A DNA stretch of 61,828 bases, the filler included, from Chthonomonadaceae bacterium (GTDB lineage Bacteria; Armatimonadota; Chthonomonadetes; Chthonomonadales; Chthonomonadaceae), in NCBI GenBank assembly GCA_035650735.1. It is 4 parts of 4 records of this genome, joined end to end, with 100 filler letters (N's around TTAATTAATTAA, not from the genome) between each part and the next. Parts side by side here need not be neighbours in the genome. Positions count along the whole stretch, not along the records: positions 1 to 28,414 come from DASRGZ010000114.1; 3 more parts are not named here. One strand, given 5' to 3'. The position numbers and the translations under genes are program-made. The notes beneath the pieces are model-generated. The model did not search any database. It saw only the letters and a program-made list of their open reading frames with translations, and was not told the DNA's origin. Positions 16,750 to 58,338 of this stretch are shown here, one piece after another (the stretch's first letter is position 1; each line of letters opens with the position of its first letter).

Positions 16750-16943
16750 GACCTCACCCCCCCGGCCCCTCTCCTTCTCAAGGAGAGGGGAGAATGTCTT
16801 ACTCCCAGGATCTTTCCGTTCTGCTTTATCTCTCCTCATTCCCTTCCCTTCTCCCTGCAAGGGAGAAGGGGGAAGAGAAGCCGGGGAATCCCCTTCCCTG
16901 TGAGCGGAGCGAACATATCAGGGAAGGGGGCCGGGGGTTAGGT
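16750..16943. repeat. REP-like palindrome cluster (three hairpins)
   Basis: CCCCTCTCC/GGAGAGGGG and CCCTTCCC/GGGAAGGG stems with GGCCGGGGGTTAGG tails. Confidence 0.85.
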
Positions 16944-19916: not shown

Positions 19917-20009
19917 CCCCACTGCTAGGGTCGGGCCTGCAATGGACTGCAAGGGTCGGCCCTGCCATGGTTGGGGCCTCTGCCTTGCGACAGCCCTCCG
20001 CCTTGCGAT
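19917..20009 (-). repeat. Nested hairpin unit (two levels) inside a REP palindrome
   Basis: Minus strand: ATCGCAAGGCGGAG / TGTCGCAAGGCAGAG ... CCGACCCTTGCAGT / CCGACCCTAGCAGT. Confidence 0.8.
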
Positions 20010-20240
20010 CCCCAACAACAGGGGAGGGGAGACTCTCTCACTGCCAGGTTCTTCCGTACTCTCTTATCTCCCCTCCTCCCCGGCCCTTCTCCCTGCAAGG
20101 CAGAAGGGAGAGCAGAAGCCAGCATGACCTCTGCCCACGTAGGTGGGCAGCGGGCCATAGGCCCCACAGCGGCAGGGTTTAGCCTGCCGAGAGAACAGAA
20201 GCCGGGTCCCCCCTTCCCTAGCGAGGTACGAGCGGGCAGG

Positions 20241-20324
20241 ATCGCCAGGTGTCGCCAGGCAGAGCCGCGAACCGTTGAGCGGCGTCCCTGGCAGTCGAGC
20301 GTGCCCAGTCCCGACCCTAGCAGT
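20241..20324 (+). repeat. Nested hairpin unit (two levels) inside a REP palindrome
   Basis: ATCGCCAGG[TGTCGCCAGGCAGAG...GTCCCTGGCAGT]CGAGCG...CCGACCCTAGCAGT interrupts the REP right arm. Confidence 0.8.
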
Positions 20325-24218: not shown

Positions 24219-24428
24219 CCCTCACCCCCGGCCCCTCTCCCGACGCTGCGGGAGAAGGGAGAGGTTCTCATTCCCAGGCTCTTCCGTTCTGCCTTCTCTC
24301 CCCTCATCCCCGGCCCTTCTCCCTTGGAGGGAGAAGGGAGAGCAGAAGCCGGGCATCTACTTCCCCCTCTCCCGCAGCGCCGGGAGAGGGGGGCAGGGGG
24401 TGAGGGCGATAAGAAACAGGGGGTTAGG
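24219..24428. repeat. REP-like palindrome cluster
   Basis: Three copies of CCCTCACCCCCGGCCCCTCTCCC-loop-GGGAGA, in both orientations. Confidence 0.85.
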
Positions 24429-25727: not shown

Positions 25728-26819
25728 TTACGCTGCCTCTTCCAGTGCGTAGGCAATGGCCTGCTCCAGAGTCATGGCCCGTCCCTCCGACCAGGCAGCG
25801 TTAAAGCCATCCTCGCTCAAGTCAGCACGGGCCTGAGCTATCTCGCGGTCGTGCTTCTTACGCTCACGGGGCTGGAGGGGAGCGCCAATCTCCTCCCGCA
25901 GCGCCTCCGCAGTGCCCCACAACCGTGCCGCGCGCTCTGTCTGCTCCTGCACGGAAGCCAGAGCCGCAAATGCCTCCAGCGAACCCGCAATGCCCTGTTG
26001 TTGCCCTAATTCCCGAAAGAGTGCCAGGCTCTCCCTATGCAGGTCATGCGCTGTGGCATACTCGTCTTGAGCATAGGCGACCTGCCCCAGGTTGAAGAGC
26101 GAGTAGGCCAGACCTCCTTTGTCCCCCACCTCCCGAAAGAGCGCCAGACTCTCCTCTTGAAGGGTACGAGCCGCCCTGTAATCATCCTGCATTTGAGCTA
26201 CCAATCCCAGGTTGTTAAGGGACGCCGCGATGCTCGGTAGACACTCCCAGCCGTGTGGATCAATCTCACGCAGCCTGCTGCTGAGGAGATACGTCAACAC
26301 CGTTGGGAGGGATTACCCGATGCTCTGTTTGTCTCCCAATTCCCGTCGCAGCGCCAGACTCTCCTCGTGCAAGGCGCGTGCTGTCGTAAAATCGCCTTGC
26401 TCATAGGTCAGCACCGCAAGATTATTGAGTGTCGTTGCGATGTTCAGAGGCTGACCGAAGTAATCACCATCGCGTTCTTCTGTCATGCCGGTATGCAGAG
26501 CCATCCTTACGCGCAGCGAAAGTCTGTCCGGCCAGGGCTCGGCGTGGAGAGCGCGCTGCGCAGCGAGAGCGGCGTGGAGAGCATCGGGTGCGCTGGCGAA
26601 GGCAGCGCAGAAGGCATCACCGACGGTTTTGAACACCACCCCGCTGTTGCTCTCGATGGCCTGTCGGAGCAGGGCGTCATGGCGTGCCAGAGCCGCGCGC
26701 ATAGCCTCCGGGTGTTCCTCCCAGAGCTTGGTGCTGCCCTCGATGTCCGTAAAGAGAAAAGTAACGATTCCGCTCGGCAGGTTCAAACTACAACTCCCGT
26801 TCTTATATATCAGCGACAC
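25728..26819 (-). pseudogene. Adenylate/guanylate cyclase-TPR gene remnant (internal deletion plus MITE insertion)
   Basis: 'TFLFTDIEGST..KTVGDAF..RMALHTG..DYFG' runs directly into TPRs; removing the 90-bp insertion restores 'GDKQSIAASLNNLG'. Confidence 0.85.
26236..26317. mobile_element. 82-bp MITE with IS1-like termini
   Basis: Inverted ends GGTAGACACTCCCAGCCGTGTGGA / GGTAATCCCTCCCAACGGTGTTGA (18/24 match); 8-bp target duplication CGATGCTC at 26228-26235 and 26318-26325. Confidence 0.85.
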
Positions 26820-26895
26820 TGTTCATTATGAGGCGAACCCTTTCCTGCCTCAGGGTCCTTCCGTTCTCGGCGCTATTGCGTTTTTGGCGTCCGCC

Positions 26896-27028
26896 AGTCA
26901 CAAGGCAGAGGCGCGAGTGTCGCTAGGCGGAGGGCTGTCGCAAGGCGGAGGCGCGAACTATTGCAGCGCCGACCCTTGCAGTCCGTTGAGGGCCGACCCT
27001 AGCAGTCGTAGCGCCGTCCCTTGCAGTC
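26896..27028 (+). repeat. Nested hairpin unit (three levels)
   Basis: Left ends CAAGG, CTAGG, CAAGG matched outside-in by right ends CCTTG, CCTAG, CCTTG. Confidence 0.85.
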
Positions 27029-27202
27029 GCTTGGCCGCTGAGCCGGGTCATTCATGGCCCGGCGTCTGCCTAGGACAAGAACGTTCAGGATCCCTGGCTC
27101 AAGAGCAGGGATTGTGCTCTCTCCCGAGGAATGGTAAAACCGGAATTTACTCACTTAAAGCCGATGTGCTTCGCAGTGGCGGGAGTTGAAAGGGGAGTAA
27201 CA

Positions 27203-28820: not shown

Positions 28821-31800
28821 TTATTTGCCGTTCTTACCGTTGGATTGCGCTTTGGCCTGGGCGGCGGCGTTGGCCTTCTCCTCGACCTCTTCGGTGCTGA
28901 CCAGCCGCTCCATGGTGGCCACCTTATCGCCCTCATCCAGGTTGATCAGCTTGACGCCCTGCGTGCTGCGCCCTGCGACCCGGATGTCGGCGATATTCAT
29001 GCGGATAGCCACCCCGCTTTCGGTCAGCACGATCAGCTTATCGTTGGGCTCGACGACGGCTGCATCCACAATCGGGCCGGTCTTGGTGGTCACATTCATC
29101 GTAATCAGGCCCTTGCCGCCCCGCGATTGGGCCCGGTAGTGGGCTAAGTCGGTGCGCTTGCCGTAGCCGTTCTCGCTGGCGACAAGAAGTTGGCTGGTGG
29201 GGCTGACCACATCCATCGCCACGACCTTATCCTGGAGTTGGCGTGTCTTGGGGTCGCGCAGCTCGATGCTGCGCACGCCGCCGGCCGAGTAGCCCCGCTC
29301 CGGCACGTCCTCTTCCTTAAAGCGAATGGACATGCCGTTGCGCGTCACCAGGATCACCTCCTGCTTGCCGTCGGTGTGCTTGACCCACTTGAGGTTGTCG
29401 CCCTCCTCGATGTCAAAGCACTTCTTGCCGTTGACGCGCAGGTTGGCGAACTCGGAGAGCGGGGTGCGCTTGACCTCGCCGTGCTCGGTGGCCAGCAGCA
29501 GGTAGCCCTCGGCGCTCAGGTCCTTGATGGGCAGGATGGCCGTGATCTTGTCTCCCGGCTCGACCTGGATGAAGTTATTGATGTGCTGGCCGCGCGCCTG
29601 GCGGGAGGTCTGGGGCACCTCGTAGGCTTTGAGCTTGTAGACGCGGCCCCGGTCGGTAAAGAACAAGATATAATGGGTCGTGGTCGCCACAAAGAGGTGG
29701 GCCAGCGAGTCCTCCTCTTTGAGGTTGGCCGCCTGTACGCCGCGCCCGCCGCGCTTCTGCGTGCGGTAGGTATCCATCGGCACGCGCTTGATATAGCCGT
29801 CGCGGGAGATGGTGACCAGGGTCTCCTCTTCGGGAACGAGGTCGTCTTCGGTGATCTCGTCGGCCTCGGTGGGCAGAATGCGCGTGCGCCGGTCGTCGCC
29901 GTACTTGTCGCGGAGGGCGCGCAGCTCGTCCTTGAGTATCTTGACCAGCCGGGCCGGGTTGACCAGAATGTCCTCGAAGTGGGCGATCTGCTTGAGCAGG
30001 CCCTTGTATTCGTCCTCGATGCGCTGGCGCTCCAGTTGGGCGAGGGAGCGCAGCTGCATACTCAAGATGGCCTCCGCCTGAATCTGGGTCAGGCCGAACC
30101 GCTCCACCATCTGCGTGCGGGCCGCGTCGCTGCTGGAGGCGTTGCGGATGAGCGCGATAATCTCGTCCAGGAAGTTGAGGGCGATCTGCAACCCTTCCAG
30201 GCGGTGCGCGGCGGCTTTGGCGCGGGCCAGCTCGTAGCGGGTGCGCCGGACGACGACCTCTTTGCGGTGCGCCAGGTACAGGTGGATGACCTGCTGGAGA
30301 TTGAGCAGACGCGGCTGTCCGTTGACCAGGGCCAGCATGATGATGCCGAAGGTCTGGCGCAGCGCCGTATGCTTGAGCAGGAAGTTGACGATACGCTTGG
30401 GCAGGACGTCGCGGCGCAGCTCGATGACAATGCGCATCCCGTGCCGGTCGCTATAATCCTGGACATCGGTGATGCCCTCGACCTTCTTGAGCCGGGCCAA
30501 TTCCCCAATATGCTTGATGAGATTGGCCTTGTTGACCTGGTAGGGCAGTTCGGTGACGACGATGGCGTTCTTGCCGCCGTCCATCGGCTCGATCTGCAAC
30601 TGCGCCTGCATGATCACGCGCCCGCGCCCGGTGCGATAGGCTTCCTTGGCGCCCTTCGTGCCCAGAATTAACCCGGCGGTCGGGAAGTCGGGGCCGGGGA
30701 TGAAGCGCATGAGGTCATCCGGGGTGGCGTCCGGGTGGTCGAGGGCGTAGATGCAGGCGTCCACGACTTCGCGCAGGTTATGCGGGGGGACGCTGGTGCT
30801 CATGCCGACGGCGATGCCTTCGCCGCCGTTGCAGAGGAAGTTAGGAAACTTGCCCGGCAGAACGGTCGGCTGTTGCCTGGACTGGTCGTAGTTGGGCATC
30901 CAGTCTACGGCGTCCTTGTCCAGGTCCTCCATCATCTCCATCGCCAGCGGCGTCAGACGACACTCGGTATTGTGGTTGACGAAGCCGTTAGCGACGAACG
31001 AGTGGCATTCGCTGTCCACGCGCACGGAGTAGACGCGCTGCATTCCCGCGTCCTCGATGTGGACGACAGGATCGAACAGATAGCGCCCCTGCGCGAAGGA
31101 GGCTGCGTGCGCATAATCGGCGGGGGTCAGCGCCTGTTCCAGGCGCGGCAGCGCCTTCGCCAGTCGCGCAGGCCGGTCTATGTTGTGCTTGGACAGCCAT
31201 TCCCGGTGTCCGCGCCAGGCGTTGGCGCGCACAAAATCGGCCAAAAACGGCACGAAGTCCGTCTTTGAGAGCGCCCGTCCGGAGTGGTTTGCCAGCAGTT
31301 CGACCAGCGCCGCGCGCTTGATTGCCGAGACAAAGCCGATCTTGGCCTCAAATCGCCGCAGGTTCTCCTGGCCGACGATGCCCAGGCGGTACGTGCCGCG
31401 CACCCGTTCCTCGCCCAGCGCCGACACGATGCCGAAGCGCAATAGTACCGTCTGCACCTGCCGCAGCAGCGCCCGGTTCTTGGCGCACAGCCCGACGCGT
31501 AGCAGGCTGCGCCCCGACCGCTCCGCCGCGCCGTCGCCCTCATAGAGGCCGCGCAGGAACGCCGCGACGACAGCCTGCGGCGACCGCAAAACCACTTCGG
31601 GGATCAGGCGCGTCGCCGCGCGGCCTGTCAATCCCAGGTTATTCAGGAAGGCGATCACCTGACGGCTGACGACCTGCATCTGCCAGAACGGCTTTTTGCC
31701 ATAGCGGGCAGGCTCGCGCAGGAAGGTATGCAGGCAGCACGTCGGGAAGACACGCGCCCAGGCGGCTTGAAATGCCTCCGCGAAATCGCCGGGCGTATTG

Positions 31801-32687
31801 GTGAACTCAATGACGCTACTGCGGACGGTGCCTTCTGCAACCAGCGCGCCCAGCAGGAAAGCCAGGTCTTCCGTCAGTTCCGTCGGCAGGGGATGCCGCT
31901 CCTGCCGCGAGTCGGCGGGCAGATCGGGATGGAAGGGCCGCAGGTCTACCGGGCGCTCCGGCCAGAGCGCTTCGCTGCGATCCAGTACCAGGTAGTCGCC
32001 CGGCTGAAGATCGGCAATCGTCTTCCAGACAAGCTGCACGCGCTTGTCCTGGCCGGGAACGCAGATGAGCAGAGGATGGTTGGTCGTTCCGGTGACCTCA
32101 TAGCCGCGCCGCGTGCGGATGCGCCGGGTAGGAAACGCGCCGCAGTCGAACCATTTGCTGGCGGTGTTCACCTGGCCCTGTAGGGAGAGCACCTGCTCCT
32201 GAATATCTTCCTCACCTTCGGAAAGCCGATCCATGCGCTGTAAGCCATCTTTAGTGACAATAAGGCTGTCACCAGTGACACAATAGCGCATAGCGGCAGG
32301 TGGATCGCCATCCACGCTGCCAAAATTGCCCTGTGGGTCAATCAGCGGGTAGCGCATACTGAAGTCTTGCGCCATGCGGACGAGGGTGCCATAGAGGGCG
32401 AGGTCGCCATGGGGGTGGTAGTTGCCCATCGTCTCACCGACAACTTTGGCGGATTTGACGCGGGCGGAGCCAGGCCCGACGCCGAGCTCGCGCATGGCAT
32501 AGAGGATGCGCCGCTGTACGGGCTTAAAGCCGTCGCGCACATCCGGCAGGGCGCGCGAGACCAACGTGGAGACGGCATAGCCGAGGTAAGAGCGGCGCAG
32601 TTCCTGCTCGATGTCTACGAGCATCAGGCCGCCTTCTCCGTTTTCGTTGCCGTCGTTCGGGCCGTTGGGAAGGGTGTCGTTTGCCAA
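28821..32687 (-). CDS. gyrA: DNA gyrase subunit A (intein-containing)
   Basis: '[16 protein letters not shown]', 'YHPHGD', 'AAMRY|TE', GyrA box 'QKRGGRG', beta-pinwheel repeats; TTG start after GAGGAG. Confidence 0.97.
30969..32282 (-). mobile_element. 438-aa intein with LAGLIDADG homing endonuclease
   Basis: Starts CVTGDS, block B 'TTNHPL', DOD helices 'LLGALVAEG' and '[10 protein letters not shown]', ends '[10 protein letters not shown]' before Thr. Confidence 0.95.
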
Positions 32688-32780
32688 CGTTCTCTCCTCA
32701 AAAATCACGCACAGGCCGACGCCGCTGCGGTCATCCGACCTGCAATCAGGGACTCATATCCTATCTCATTTATGCTCTCT

Positions 32781-36149: not shown

Positions 36150-36360
36150 CTGTTCTTCCTCGTTTGTTTTTCCTCACCTAATCATGATCCGGGCGATGCA
36201 AATACGCGCCGAACCCTGGCAGGAATTCTTCGGCTGACCTGCGAATCCCTTCTGCACTCGGGGGTTTGCAGGCTCCTGTTTTACGGGCGGCTCAAGACGC
36301 AGCAACAAGAGCACTAAGTCGCCCTGCGGCGACTCCATCCTCCCCTCTCCCGCAGCGTGG

Positions 36361-36502
36361 ATCGCTAGGCGAGGGGTGTCGCCAGGCGGAGGGGTGTCGC
36401 AAGGCAAAGCCGTGTCGCAAGGTGTCGCAAGGCGGAGGCAAGGGCCGTAACCTTGCCGACCCTAGCAGTGGCCCGAACCATGGCAGCCCCGACCCTTGCA
36501 GT
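36361..36502 (+). repeat. Nested hairpin unit array inside a REP palindrome
   Basis: Five TCGCNAGG left ends and two CCGACCCTNGCAGT right ends replace GAG in the REP arm. Confidence 0.8.
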
Positions 36503-54664: not shown

Positions 54665-54776
54665 CGCTGCCAGGGTCGGCGCTGCGCTCGCTCGACTGCC
54701 AGGGACGCCGCTCAACGGTTCGCGGCTCTGCCTGGCGATCTCCGCCTAGCCAGGCCCGCTGACTGCCAGGGTCGGG
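54665..54776 (-). repeat. Nested hairpin unit at contig end
   Basis: Minus strand: GCTAGGCGGAG ATCGCCAGGCAGAG..GTCCCTGGCAGT..CCGACCCTGGCAG. Confidence 0.75.
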
Positions 54777-54876
54777 NNNNNNNNNNNNNNNNNNNNNNNN
54801 NNNNNNNNNNNNNNNNNNNNTTAATTAATTAANNNNNNNNNNNNNNNNNNNNNNNNNNNNNNNNNNNNNNNNNNNN
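54777..54876. other. Artificial contig linker
   Basis: N-run + TTAATTAATTAA + N-run. Confidence 0.98.
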
Positions 54877-58045: not shown

Positions 58046-58338
58046 ATGACCCGTCTGTAGGGCGGCTACGCCGCCAACCGTCCTCGCGGACGGAACAACC
58101 GGCCTATCGGCAGGGGGATTGCCTTCGTAGAGCGGAAAGAGCCGTCCGCAACGGAGCGTCCGCTAGTCGCAAGGCAGAGGCGCGAGTATCGCCAGGCGGA
58201 GATCGCCAGGCAGAGCCGCGAACCGTTGAGCGGCGTCCCTGGCAGTCGAGCGTGCCCAGTCCCGACCCTAGCAGTGGTAGCGCCGTCCCTTGCAGTCGCC
58301 TGGCCGTAGGCCCCTCAGACGGGTCATTCATGGCCCGG
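58035..58338. repeat. Composite repeat with perfect 23-bp terminal inverted repeats enclosing a three-level nested unit
   Basis: CCGGGCCATGAATGACCCGTCTG (58035-58057) / CAGACGGGTCATTCATGGCCCGG (58316-58338). Confidence 0.85.

Follow-up and report, generated by a model that had tools for sequence, protein, structure and literature searches.

The sequence analysed here, which we refer to as the window, is a stretch of 61,828 nucleotides (filler included) joined from four parts of four records of a Chthonomonadaceae bacterium genome (GCA_035650735.1; 6.5 Mb in 224 contigs, 97.6% complete), hereafter the source genome or G000. At positions 26896 to 27027 it carries three copies of a short non-coding hairpin unit inserted one inside the other, and the whole nest interrupts a repeat of the type that flanks a Y1 transposase gene. 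The parts of this locus, the other loci of the same element in the window and the empty host repeats used for comparison are as follows:

26886..26895 (+), host repeat, left part; repeats of this type flank the Y1 transposase gene at G000:C166 (L001)
26896..27027 (+), outermost unit of the three-level nest; tag AGTC, tail AGT, degenerate left arm ACAAGG, right arm CCTTGC
26918..27006 (+), middle unit of the nest; N pair T/A, with TGTC as tag
26936..26982 (+), innermost unit, 47 nt long and intact; tag TGTC, tail AGT
27028..27063 (+), right part of the host repeat including its terminal hairpin
19921..20010 (-), DUF559-type host with a two-level nest; N pair A/T in the inner unit, mismatched A/A in the outer one
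20240..20324 (+), nest of two levels, likewise in a DUF559-type host; 46-nt inner unit at 20250-20295 (C/G)
36360..36502 (+), unbalanced array of 5 left and 2-3 right ends in a DUF559-type host
54666..54776 (-), nest of two levels together with another unit's right end, cut by the scaffold gap at 54777
58165..58296 (+), three-level nest in a Y1-type host; tags AGTC, TATC, GATC; N pairs A/T, C/A, C/G
24364..24406 (+), palindrome of a DUF559-type host without insertion (comparison site)
16891..16938 (+), empty DUF559-type host palindrome with GGAA target (comparison site)
58073..58092 (-), empty Y1-type host with AGGA target (comparison site)

From 5' to 3' each unit consists of a 4-nt tag, GC-N-AGG, a 4-nt bulge, a 5-bp inner stem around a 10-11-nt loop, a 3-nt bulge, CCT-N-GC and the tail AGT. 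The whole measures 46-47 nt, and the 39-40 nt between tag and tail form an interrupted hairpin of 6 bp plus 5 bp that starts with GC; its inverted repeats are therefore subterminal and asymmetric, with an extension of 3 nt on the right and at most 4 nt on the left. Genome-wide, the length from arm to arm is 40 nt in 518 and 39 nt in 172 of 702 units (under a parse that accepts only 38-42), the tags observed are TGTC, GGTC, GATC, AGTC and CCTC, and the tail is AGT in 603 of the 702. The intact unit at 26936-26982 illustrates this plan with a 6-bp outer stem, a 4x3 internal loop (CGGA/GAC), a 5-bp inner stem and an 11-nt loop. It interrupts the middle unit at offset 14, a position that reads CGAA in intact units, while the middle unit in turn interrupts the outermost one at offset 18; the empty form of the surrounding host repeat is CGTCCGCC-AGGA-CGCTTGG.

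A preliminary description of this DNA had reported stacked left and right ends at six loci. All of them exist, although the array at 36361 is unbalanced and the locus at 54665 runs into an N gap. The three levels at 26896 and their N pairs (A/T, T/A, A/T) are as had been described, apart from a degenerate outermost left end, and the reported mismatch in the middle level at 58166 (C/A) is confirmed. At 20241 the inner unit indeed begins directly after the AGG of the outer one, but the outer unit, whose own N pair is a C/A mismatch, is short by 8 nt rather than 4. The core sequence that had been quoted fits only some subfamilies and has a single exact match in the window. Upstream of the 26896 locus, at approximately 26236-26290 in an ORF region, lies another high-copy repeat at which public contigs pile up and break.

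The source genome harbors about 680 units at about 460 loci, with nesting up to four deep. A stack parse that accepts end pairs enclosing fewer than 70 nt of their own sequence yielded 682 left/right pairs genome-wide, with 424 innermost units and 202, 52 and 4 at successively deeper levels; an independent peeling parse gave 702 units at 462 merged loci. A strict single-unit pattern matched 283 times and a looser one 397 times, each against 0 for its reversed-pattern control, and reversed-pattern controls overall returned 0-1 matches. Beyond this genome the looser pattern stayed at chance level, with 0-1 matches in each of the 347 other genomes listed from a phylum sample of 400, a listing in which the relatives G001 and G010 are absent. 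The unit pattern detected copies in 3 of 60 relatives, looser patterns found about 11 copies in G001 and 7 in G010, a scan of a genome collection returned at least one locus, and other subfamilies occur in at least about a dozen unrelated metagenome contigs. One subfamily measures 43 nt from arm to arm and has a 12-bp outer stem with unchanged ends, and a G001 subfamily carries a perfect 12-bp outer stem. At one contig end in a genome of another genus (L005, G019:C128), 141 nt in a DUF559-type host are identical to a spacer-tagged composite of the source genome (see below); this copy may reflect either a chimeric contig end or horizontal transfer. The element had no match in Rfam and was found neither in viral contigs nor in plasmids. 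We came across no description of it in the full texts searched, which include few subscription journals; repeat families are listed in the supplements to PMC3733652 and PMC3119063, and a similar one may be among them. Taken together, this is a real, lineage-restricted, repeat-targeting micro-element whose insertion signature is unusual.

Covariation is strong in the inner 5-bp stem and weak at the N pair of the ends. Among 188 distinct 40-mers the five inner-stem pairs are complementary in 186, 172, 174, 164 and 173 cases (87-99%), compared with shuffle means of 186, 157, 98, 63 and 90. In a hand-picked set of 17 46-nt units from the window and from loci outside G000, chosen without control for relatedness, the inner stem is 100% paired with four of five pairs changed on both sides, a degree of pairing reached by 0 of 500 shuffles. 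At the ends, covariation of the variable base as previously proposed does exceed chance but is weak: the N pair is complementary in 319 of 676 cases genome-wide (47%; shuffle mean 198, maximum 231) and in 9 of 14 at the six window loci, and an A/G mismatch is its most frequent state genome-wide. In relatives the N pair is nearly always A/T, and we infer that slippage among the repeated ends has shuffled N. In folding, single units have a modest advantage over shuffles (-9.9 versus -7.6 kcal/mol; 219 units, one shuffle each). Nested arrays fold no better than shuffles (z +1.06, +0.68, +0.19, -0.11), and at 26896 the nested hairpin appears in the centroid structure only.

The element sits almost exclusively in other palindromic repeats or in its own copies. 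Repeated DNA was found in a flank of 411 of the 428 loci that lie away from contig ends, compared with 762 of 3,000 control intergenic points, and most of the remaining 17 loci resemble diverged hosts. Since intergenic DNA contains about 64,000 NGRR-type contexts, the tetranucleotide alone fails to explain this targeting. Only 11 of 462 loci overlap genes (by our own rough gene caller), and 85 lie between convergent and 43 between divergent genes against a background of 441 and 618, respectively. One type of host is the palindromes that flank standalone DUF559 genes in relatives, and another is the terminal repeats of Y1 transposase genes. The repeats around a gene that we take to be GxxExxY are probably a third, as the host in one metagenome contig is of the type flanking this putative gene in the source genome. 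Other cassettes of a repeat plus a small gene, presumably GxxExxY-like and four-helix-bundle-like, lie at G000:C18:3536-3986, C161:11162-11897 and C123:4105-4509, with gene-less MITE forms on C23, C37, C111, C119, C163, C184 and C185.

Insertion is strand-polar. DUF559-type hosts present an identical local site on both strands and are filled almost always on one of them (77 filled in all, 2 on the other strand; 129 versus 0; approximate regex counts), a polarity to which founder effects could contribute. There is no replication-strand bias by a weak skew proxy (155 versus 171). Most loci carry the element on one strand only, in agreement with the earlier view that it is no REP doublet. Self-insertions fall at offsets 6, 10, 14 and 18 (81, 37, 90 and 21 of 233), all in the 5' half of the unit, and nesting in its own copies is one instance of a broader targeting of palindromic repeats. 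As the hosts are themselves repeated, none of these counts represents independent events.

Many host repeats also exist in empty form, and we used these to define the insertion junctions at base level. Exact empty paralogues exist for 90 of the 335 distinct filled flank pairs and are lacking for the other 245; these empties are paralogues rather than orthologous alleles. A gap of 4 nt separates the flanks in the empty form of 76 of the 90, most often CGGA (14), GGAG (13), GGAA (12), CGAA (12) or AGGA (7). In these 76 cases a 47-nt block stands in place of a 4-nt NGRR target, target bases 3 and 4 are always gone, no target duplication arises and the net gain is 42-43 bp. The first base of the tag follows that of the target except that a leading C is turned into T in 44 of 48 cases (C>T 44, G>G 28, A>A 8, A>G 6, C>C 4, one transversion); at the second base we counted G>G 61 times and G>A 19 times. 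Because tag bases follow the target in this way, the true left boundary of the unit is ambiguous by 1-2 nt. Across the source genome 316 left ends read TGTC and 8 read CGTC. The change from CGAA to TGTC also occurs in the 7 copies of G010, where empty sites adjoin Y1 genes, and three copies in G001 retain CGTC.

The lengths of interrupted units provide independent support for this geometry, since 149 of the 202 units split once fall short of the intact length by exactly 2 nt; another 28 of these 202 one-level hosts are short by a further 8 nt. The 4-nt geometry recurs across 53 distinct target contexts, at least five host families and four self-sites, and also in other genomes with different subfamilies. 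A shuffled-flank control peaked at 4 nt as well (98 of 166 matches) and is non-discriminating because it re-pairs flanks of one host. We found no tandem head-to-tail junctions in G000. A 370-nt metagenome contig (L135) that is densely packed with several subfamilies, among them long-stem variants whose outer arm has undergone a compensatory change, shows one ambiguous right-arm/AGT/left-arm junction. None of 370 empties with 9-nt flanks has a TC ending as expected of a tag-bearing excision footprint, and one footprint-like GGTG case is a subfamily variant. Metagenome contigs that could be compared revealed no filled/empty polymorphism, their sole indel being an unrelated tandem repeat; the empty sites sought earlier thus exist as paralogues, and no empty allele was seen in these assemblies. 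We regard anatomy, targets, polarity and junction geometry as established. Single units, empty sites and a fixed mode of insertion support the earlier proposal of a tiny non-autonomous unit that re-inserts into earlier copies; the general targeting of palindromes and the loss of target bases had been missed.

One two-level nest is marked by a unique 36-nt spacer-like insert. This composite occurs at 15 contig places, some of which are overlapping contig ends, and the 11 with a visible left flank lie in at least four host types, with TGTC at sites starting with C and GGTC or GATC at sites starting with G. Composites were thus likely mobilized whole by their outer ends, though gene conversion would give the same picture. 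Arrays also likely collapse, as shown by unbalanced arrays and by the hosts that are short by 8 nt, and the array at 36360..36502 is likely partly collapsed. With composites likely copied whole and arrays collapsing, the nests are not a clean chronological record of insertions; the idea of an ordered, growing hairpin that records successive events is not supported, given the weak N pairing, the often unbalanced arrays, the composites apparently copied whole and the 28 one-level hosts with a further 8-nt deficit.

Several loci document rearrangement between copies. The hybrids at G000:C115:3856, C155:10213, C133:48704 and C139:34309 have either a reversed right end in place of the left end or one arm copied from the opposite arm, which suggests that templates were switched between inverted copies. 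At the CTAG of an element arm, a transposase gene of the IS630 type (L054, Pfam DDE_3) has inserted, as has a short derivative with IS630-like ends at G000:C55:22162-22315. The element is not a CRISPR array, as had been recognized: its units are concentric and lack spacers, and the sole array detected (C93, period 65-67) has an unrelated repeat. The source genome also encodes cas1. Repeat-spacer-repeat scars, in which roughly 28-40 nt are duplicated around a unique insert of 30-40 nt with periods near 64-68 and 71-75, lie in or beside element loci, for example at C28:62648, C59:66548, C107:19397, C120:27848, C27:3628, C115:41819 and C119:18332. Several of the longer scars begin their duplication inside the right end of the element (TTGCAGT); Cas1-Cas2 may favor this end as an off-target site.

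In line with the preliminary description, no cognate enzyme was found in the window: 22 scanned ORFs (140 listed) include no transposase or repeat-associated nuclease, and their only nuclease domain is a LAGLIDADG intein in gyrA (28821-32708, minus strand). In the incomplete G000 assembly as a whole, no match was found to the IS110 domains PF02371 and PF01548 or, by tblastn, to two Ssn-like proteins. The only GIY-YIG proteins of G000 and G001 are UvrC-sized, and G001 and G010 yielded no Ssn-like gene; other genomes of the family contain two small Ssn-like genes, whose repeats are unrelated to the element. The standalone DUF559 genes of G001 and G010 are flanked by host repeats and not by the element. 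In G000, DUF559-type repeats are abundant and no standalone DUF559 gene was found, which makes absence from an assembly weak evidence and shows that a mobilizer can be missing. Of Y1 genes, G000 contains one intact and one frameshifted copy, both TIR-flanked. Long multi-hairpin terminal repeats flank the small Y1 genes at C166:80029-80451 and C166:12519-12952 (L001, L002) as well as those at L159-L168, and such genes, common in the family, score as IS200-type rather than RAYT in NCBIfam. No element copies flank the three Y1 matches in G000 or 15 in G001 and G010, and element ends around an IS110/IS1111, IS200/IS605 or RAYT gene, which the preliminary description had suggested seeking, were not found in G000. 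Judged by eye and in part by Pfam, neither the orphan ends of G000, nor its long elements bounded by one left and one right end, nor its genes lying between two loci or two inverted repeats offered a candidate, and no element-flanked enzyme gene was present among 45 neighbor ORFs scanned in relatives. Orphan right ends in G001 and G010 were uninformative, a short-pattern search was at chance level, and contig parts present in metagenomes and missing from G000 contain ordinary genes only.

We consider it about an even chance (roughly 50%) that the element, a 46-47-nt hairpin standing in place of NGRR in palindromes and in its own copies, is moved as single-stranded DNA by a hairpin-recognizing nuclease acting in trans. 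Such an enzyme would recognize the fixed ends (GTC-GCAAGG ... CCTTGC-AGT) together with the hairpin shape and would open an extruded host palindrome at NGRR; host repair would then trim 2-3 target bases and resolve a T:G mispair at the left junction. Copies would nest because the 5' half of the unit itself carries NGRR sites at offsets 6, 10, 14 and 18, whole nests would be mobilized by their outer ends, and slippage between repeated ends would collapse nests and shuffle N. The strand choice at targets and the conservation of shape despite sequence change count in favor of a hairpin-recognizing nuclease, and a hydrolytic nuclease with host repair is favored because base loss is difficult for a transesterifying Y1 or DEDD recombinase. 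Precedents for base loss are the 2-nt 3' overhangs produced by GIY-YIG homing endonucleases and the 2-bp target deletion that can accompany insertion of the R2 retrotransposon. The enzyme would most likely be a small repeat-associated nuclease with an Ssn- or DUF559-like lifestyle whose gene is missing from the assemblies. Ssn nucleases cut CGTC-type repeats as single-stranded DNA on one strand only, and the activity demonstrated for them is cutting rather than DNA movement (PMC11893778).

The resident TIR-flanked Y1 (HUH) transposase on C166, the product of the only intact Y1 gene found in G000, could instead excise the hairpin from single-stranded DNA and insert it in the manner proposed for TnpA-REP on REP/BIME. 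A single bulged hairpin, the absence of duplication and the strand polarity fit HUH chemistry (PMC3333891, PMC8266576), and the terminal repeats of this very gene are targeted (55 filled, 96 empty). We nevertheless judge this unlikely: a GTAG foot is absent and the two cut points have no CT in common, transesterification would not be expected to lose bases or produce C>T, 0 of 18 Y1 matches viewed are flanked by the element, no tandem head-to-tail junction exists in G000, pairing of a bulge as guide shows no covariation between subfamilies on inspection of the sequences, and relatives of the protein occur in 26 of 41 other family genomes compared with two genomes and one doubtful contig end for the element. 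Placement of an IS1111/IS110-derived MITE into palindromes by an RNA-guided DEDD recombinase, as for MITEPpu9, would account for subterminal inverted repeats with a 3-nt right extension, lack of duplication, fixed orientation and REP targeting (IS1111 traits; PMC11187229, PMC12288879) as well as for the perfect 12-bp outer stem of a G001 subfamily. It is made very unlikely by the missing PF02371 and PF01548 matches in G000, a left extension of at most 4 nt rather than 6-7, a usual stem of 6 bp, unrelated target repeats that share NGRR only, unlike a guided target, and the lack of a common core at the two junctions; moreover, IS1111 insertion adds no bases and is not described as removing any.

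The pattern might also have arisen with no dedicated enzyme, if a small number of founder insertions traveled along with mobile host repeats and spread further by gene conversion or template switching between shared ends. Host-plus-element composites with identical cargo do recur in the source genome, the tag is nearly fixed for each host, end-swapped hybrids and perfected palindromes are present, and conversion could spread the tagged composite. A uniform 4-nt geometry over 53 contexts, at least five host families, four self-sites and other genomes would nonetheless require many precise primary events, which leaves this explanation quite unlikely. That the nests are mis-assemblies of a short high-copy repeat is extremely improbable. 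Many contigs do end inside the element and no public contig compared crosses a nest, but other metagenome assemblies, which may share reads with the source, are 100% identical to G000 across 26896 (L091, 4,477 nt) and 19917/20241 (L099, 6,350 nt). Contigs of two further studies reach both outer ends from unique flanks without spanning the nest, and the nests are shorter than 150 nt and carry locus-specific variants.

Insertion geometry for CGTC-type repeats was not found in the literature covered, where the spread of short palindromic repeats is still an open question. The present element lands in repeats that also exist empty and therefore offers before/after junctions at base level in 53 target contexts, and its signature (no duplication, two bases lost, C>T) allows a direct test of any candidate enzyme. 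If a dedicated enzyme exists, it would form a very compact system that inserts a hairpin of variable sequence, possibly with cargo, at hairpin targets. More speculatively, it is possible that this is one of a class of hyperparasitic micro-elements, about 45 nt long and so far undescribed, that exploit their own copies and the palindromes at the ends of selfish nuclease cassettes (DUF559, Y1, GxxExxY), moving by a new non-conservative chemistry in which a hairpin is exchanged for a tetranucleotide and a C-to-T change is written at the junction, and that could carry nests and spacer-sized cargo.

Compared with known systems, the element departs in defining features from CGTC/SRM repeats, REP/REPIN, IS1111 MITEs and DDE MITEs. 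Like REP, REPIN and BIME sequences with their RAYT (PMC3337134, PMC3116915, PMC3333891, PMC8266576), it consists of hundreds of extragenic imperfect hairpins with lineage-restricted expansion and enrichment between convergent genes. In contrast to them, its end logos and tags lack a GTAG-type foot on either strand, it is one hairpin rather than a doublet, its higher-order forms are concentric where those described for REPs are tandem, and it interrupts the repeats flanking Y1 genes while flanking none itself. With IS1111/IS110 elements and MITEPpu9 (PMC11187229, PMC12288879) it shares subterminal inverted repeats, a 3-nt right extension, absence of duplication and insertion into palindromes in one orientation. 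However, IS1111 elements have inverted repeats of 11-13 bp with extensions of 7 (or 6) and 3 bp, compared with mainly 6 bp here (12 bp in one G001 subfamily), and unlike these systems the element measures 46-47 nt, has no guide-RNA region or common core and loses target bases. A classical DDE MITE differs from its subterminal, asymmetric repeats and its insertion without target-site duplication.

The closest described systems, as far as these sources go, are the CGTC-tagged repeats with Ssn nucleases and SMR-A of Haloquadratum. CGTC repeats (dRS3/NTS/SRM; PMC3733652) likewise have an unpaired 4-nt tag (CGTC, often TGTC or CCTC), a hairpin and a 3-nt tail, and are intergenic and strand-polar without a transposase neighbor (PMC3733652, PMC11893778). 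They differ in an 8-9-bp stem starting with AT, a 4-5-nt loop and a CCA tail, as opposed to a 39-43-nt hairpin with internal loop and AGT, in forming head-to-head dimers rather than nests, and in a small GIY-YIG (ssn) gene flanked by the repeat, which was not found in G000 or G001; in the element, moreover, the first tag base follows the target. SMR-A of Haloquadratum walsbyi (HqIRS42/43/55; PMC3119063) is also non-coding with inverted ends, causes no duplication, has an unknown mobilizer and strongly prefers the palindromes of other mobile elements, a likeness that is descriptive and by class. It is archaeal and about 110 bp long, targets IS605/PATE ends and only rarely its own kind (1 of 114 events), and neither base loss nor C>T appears in its description as available (PMC3119063). 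On this comparison, the element behaves like SMR-A built on the tag-hairpin-tail plan of CGTC repeats.
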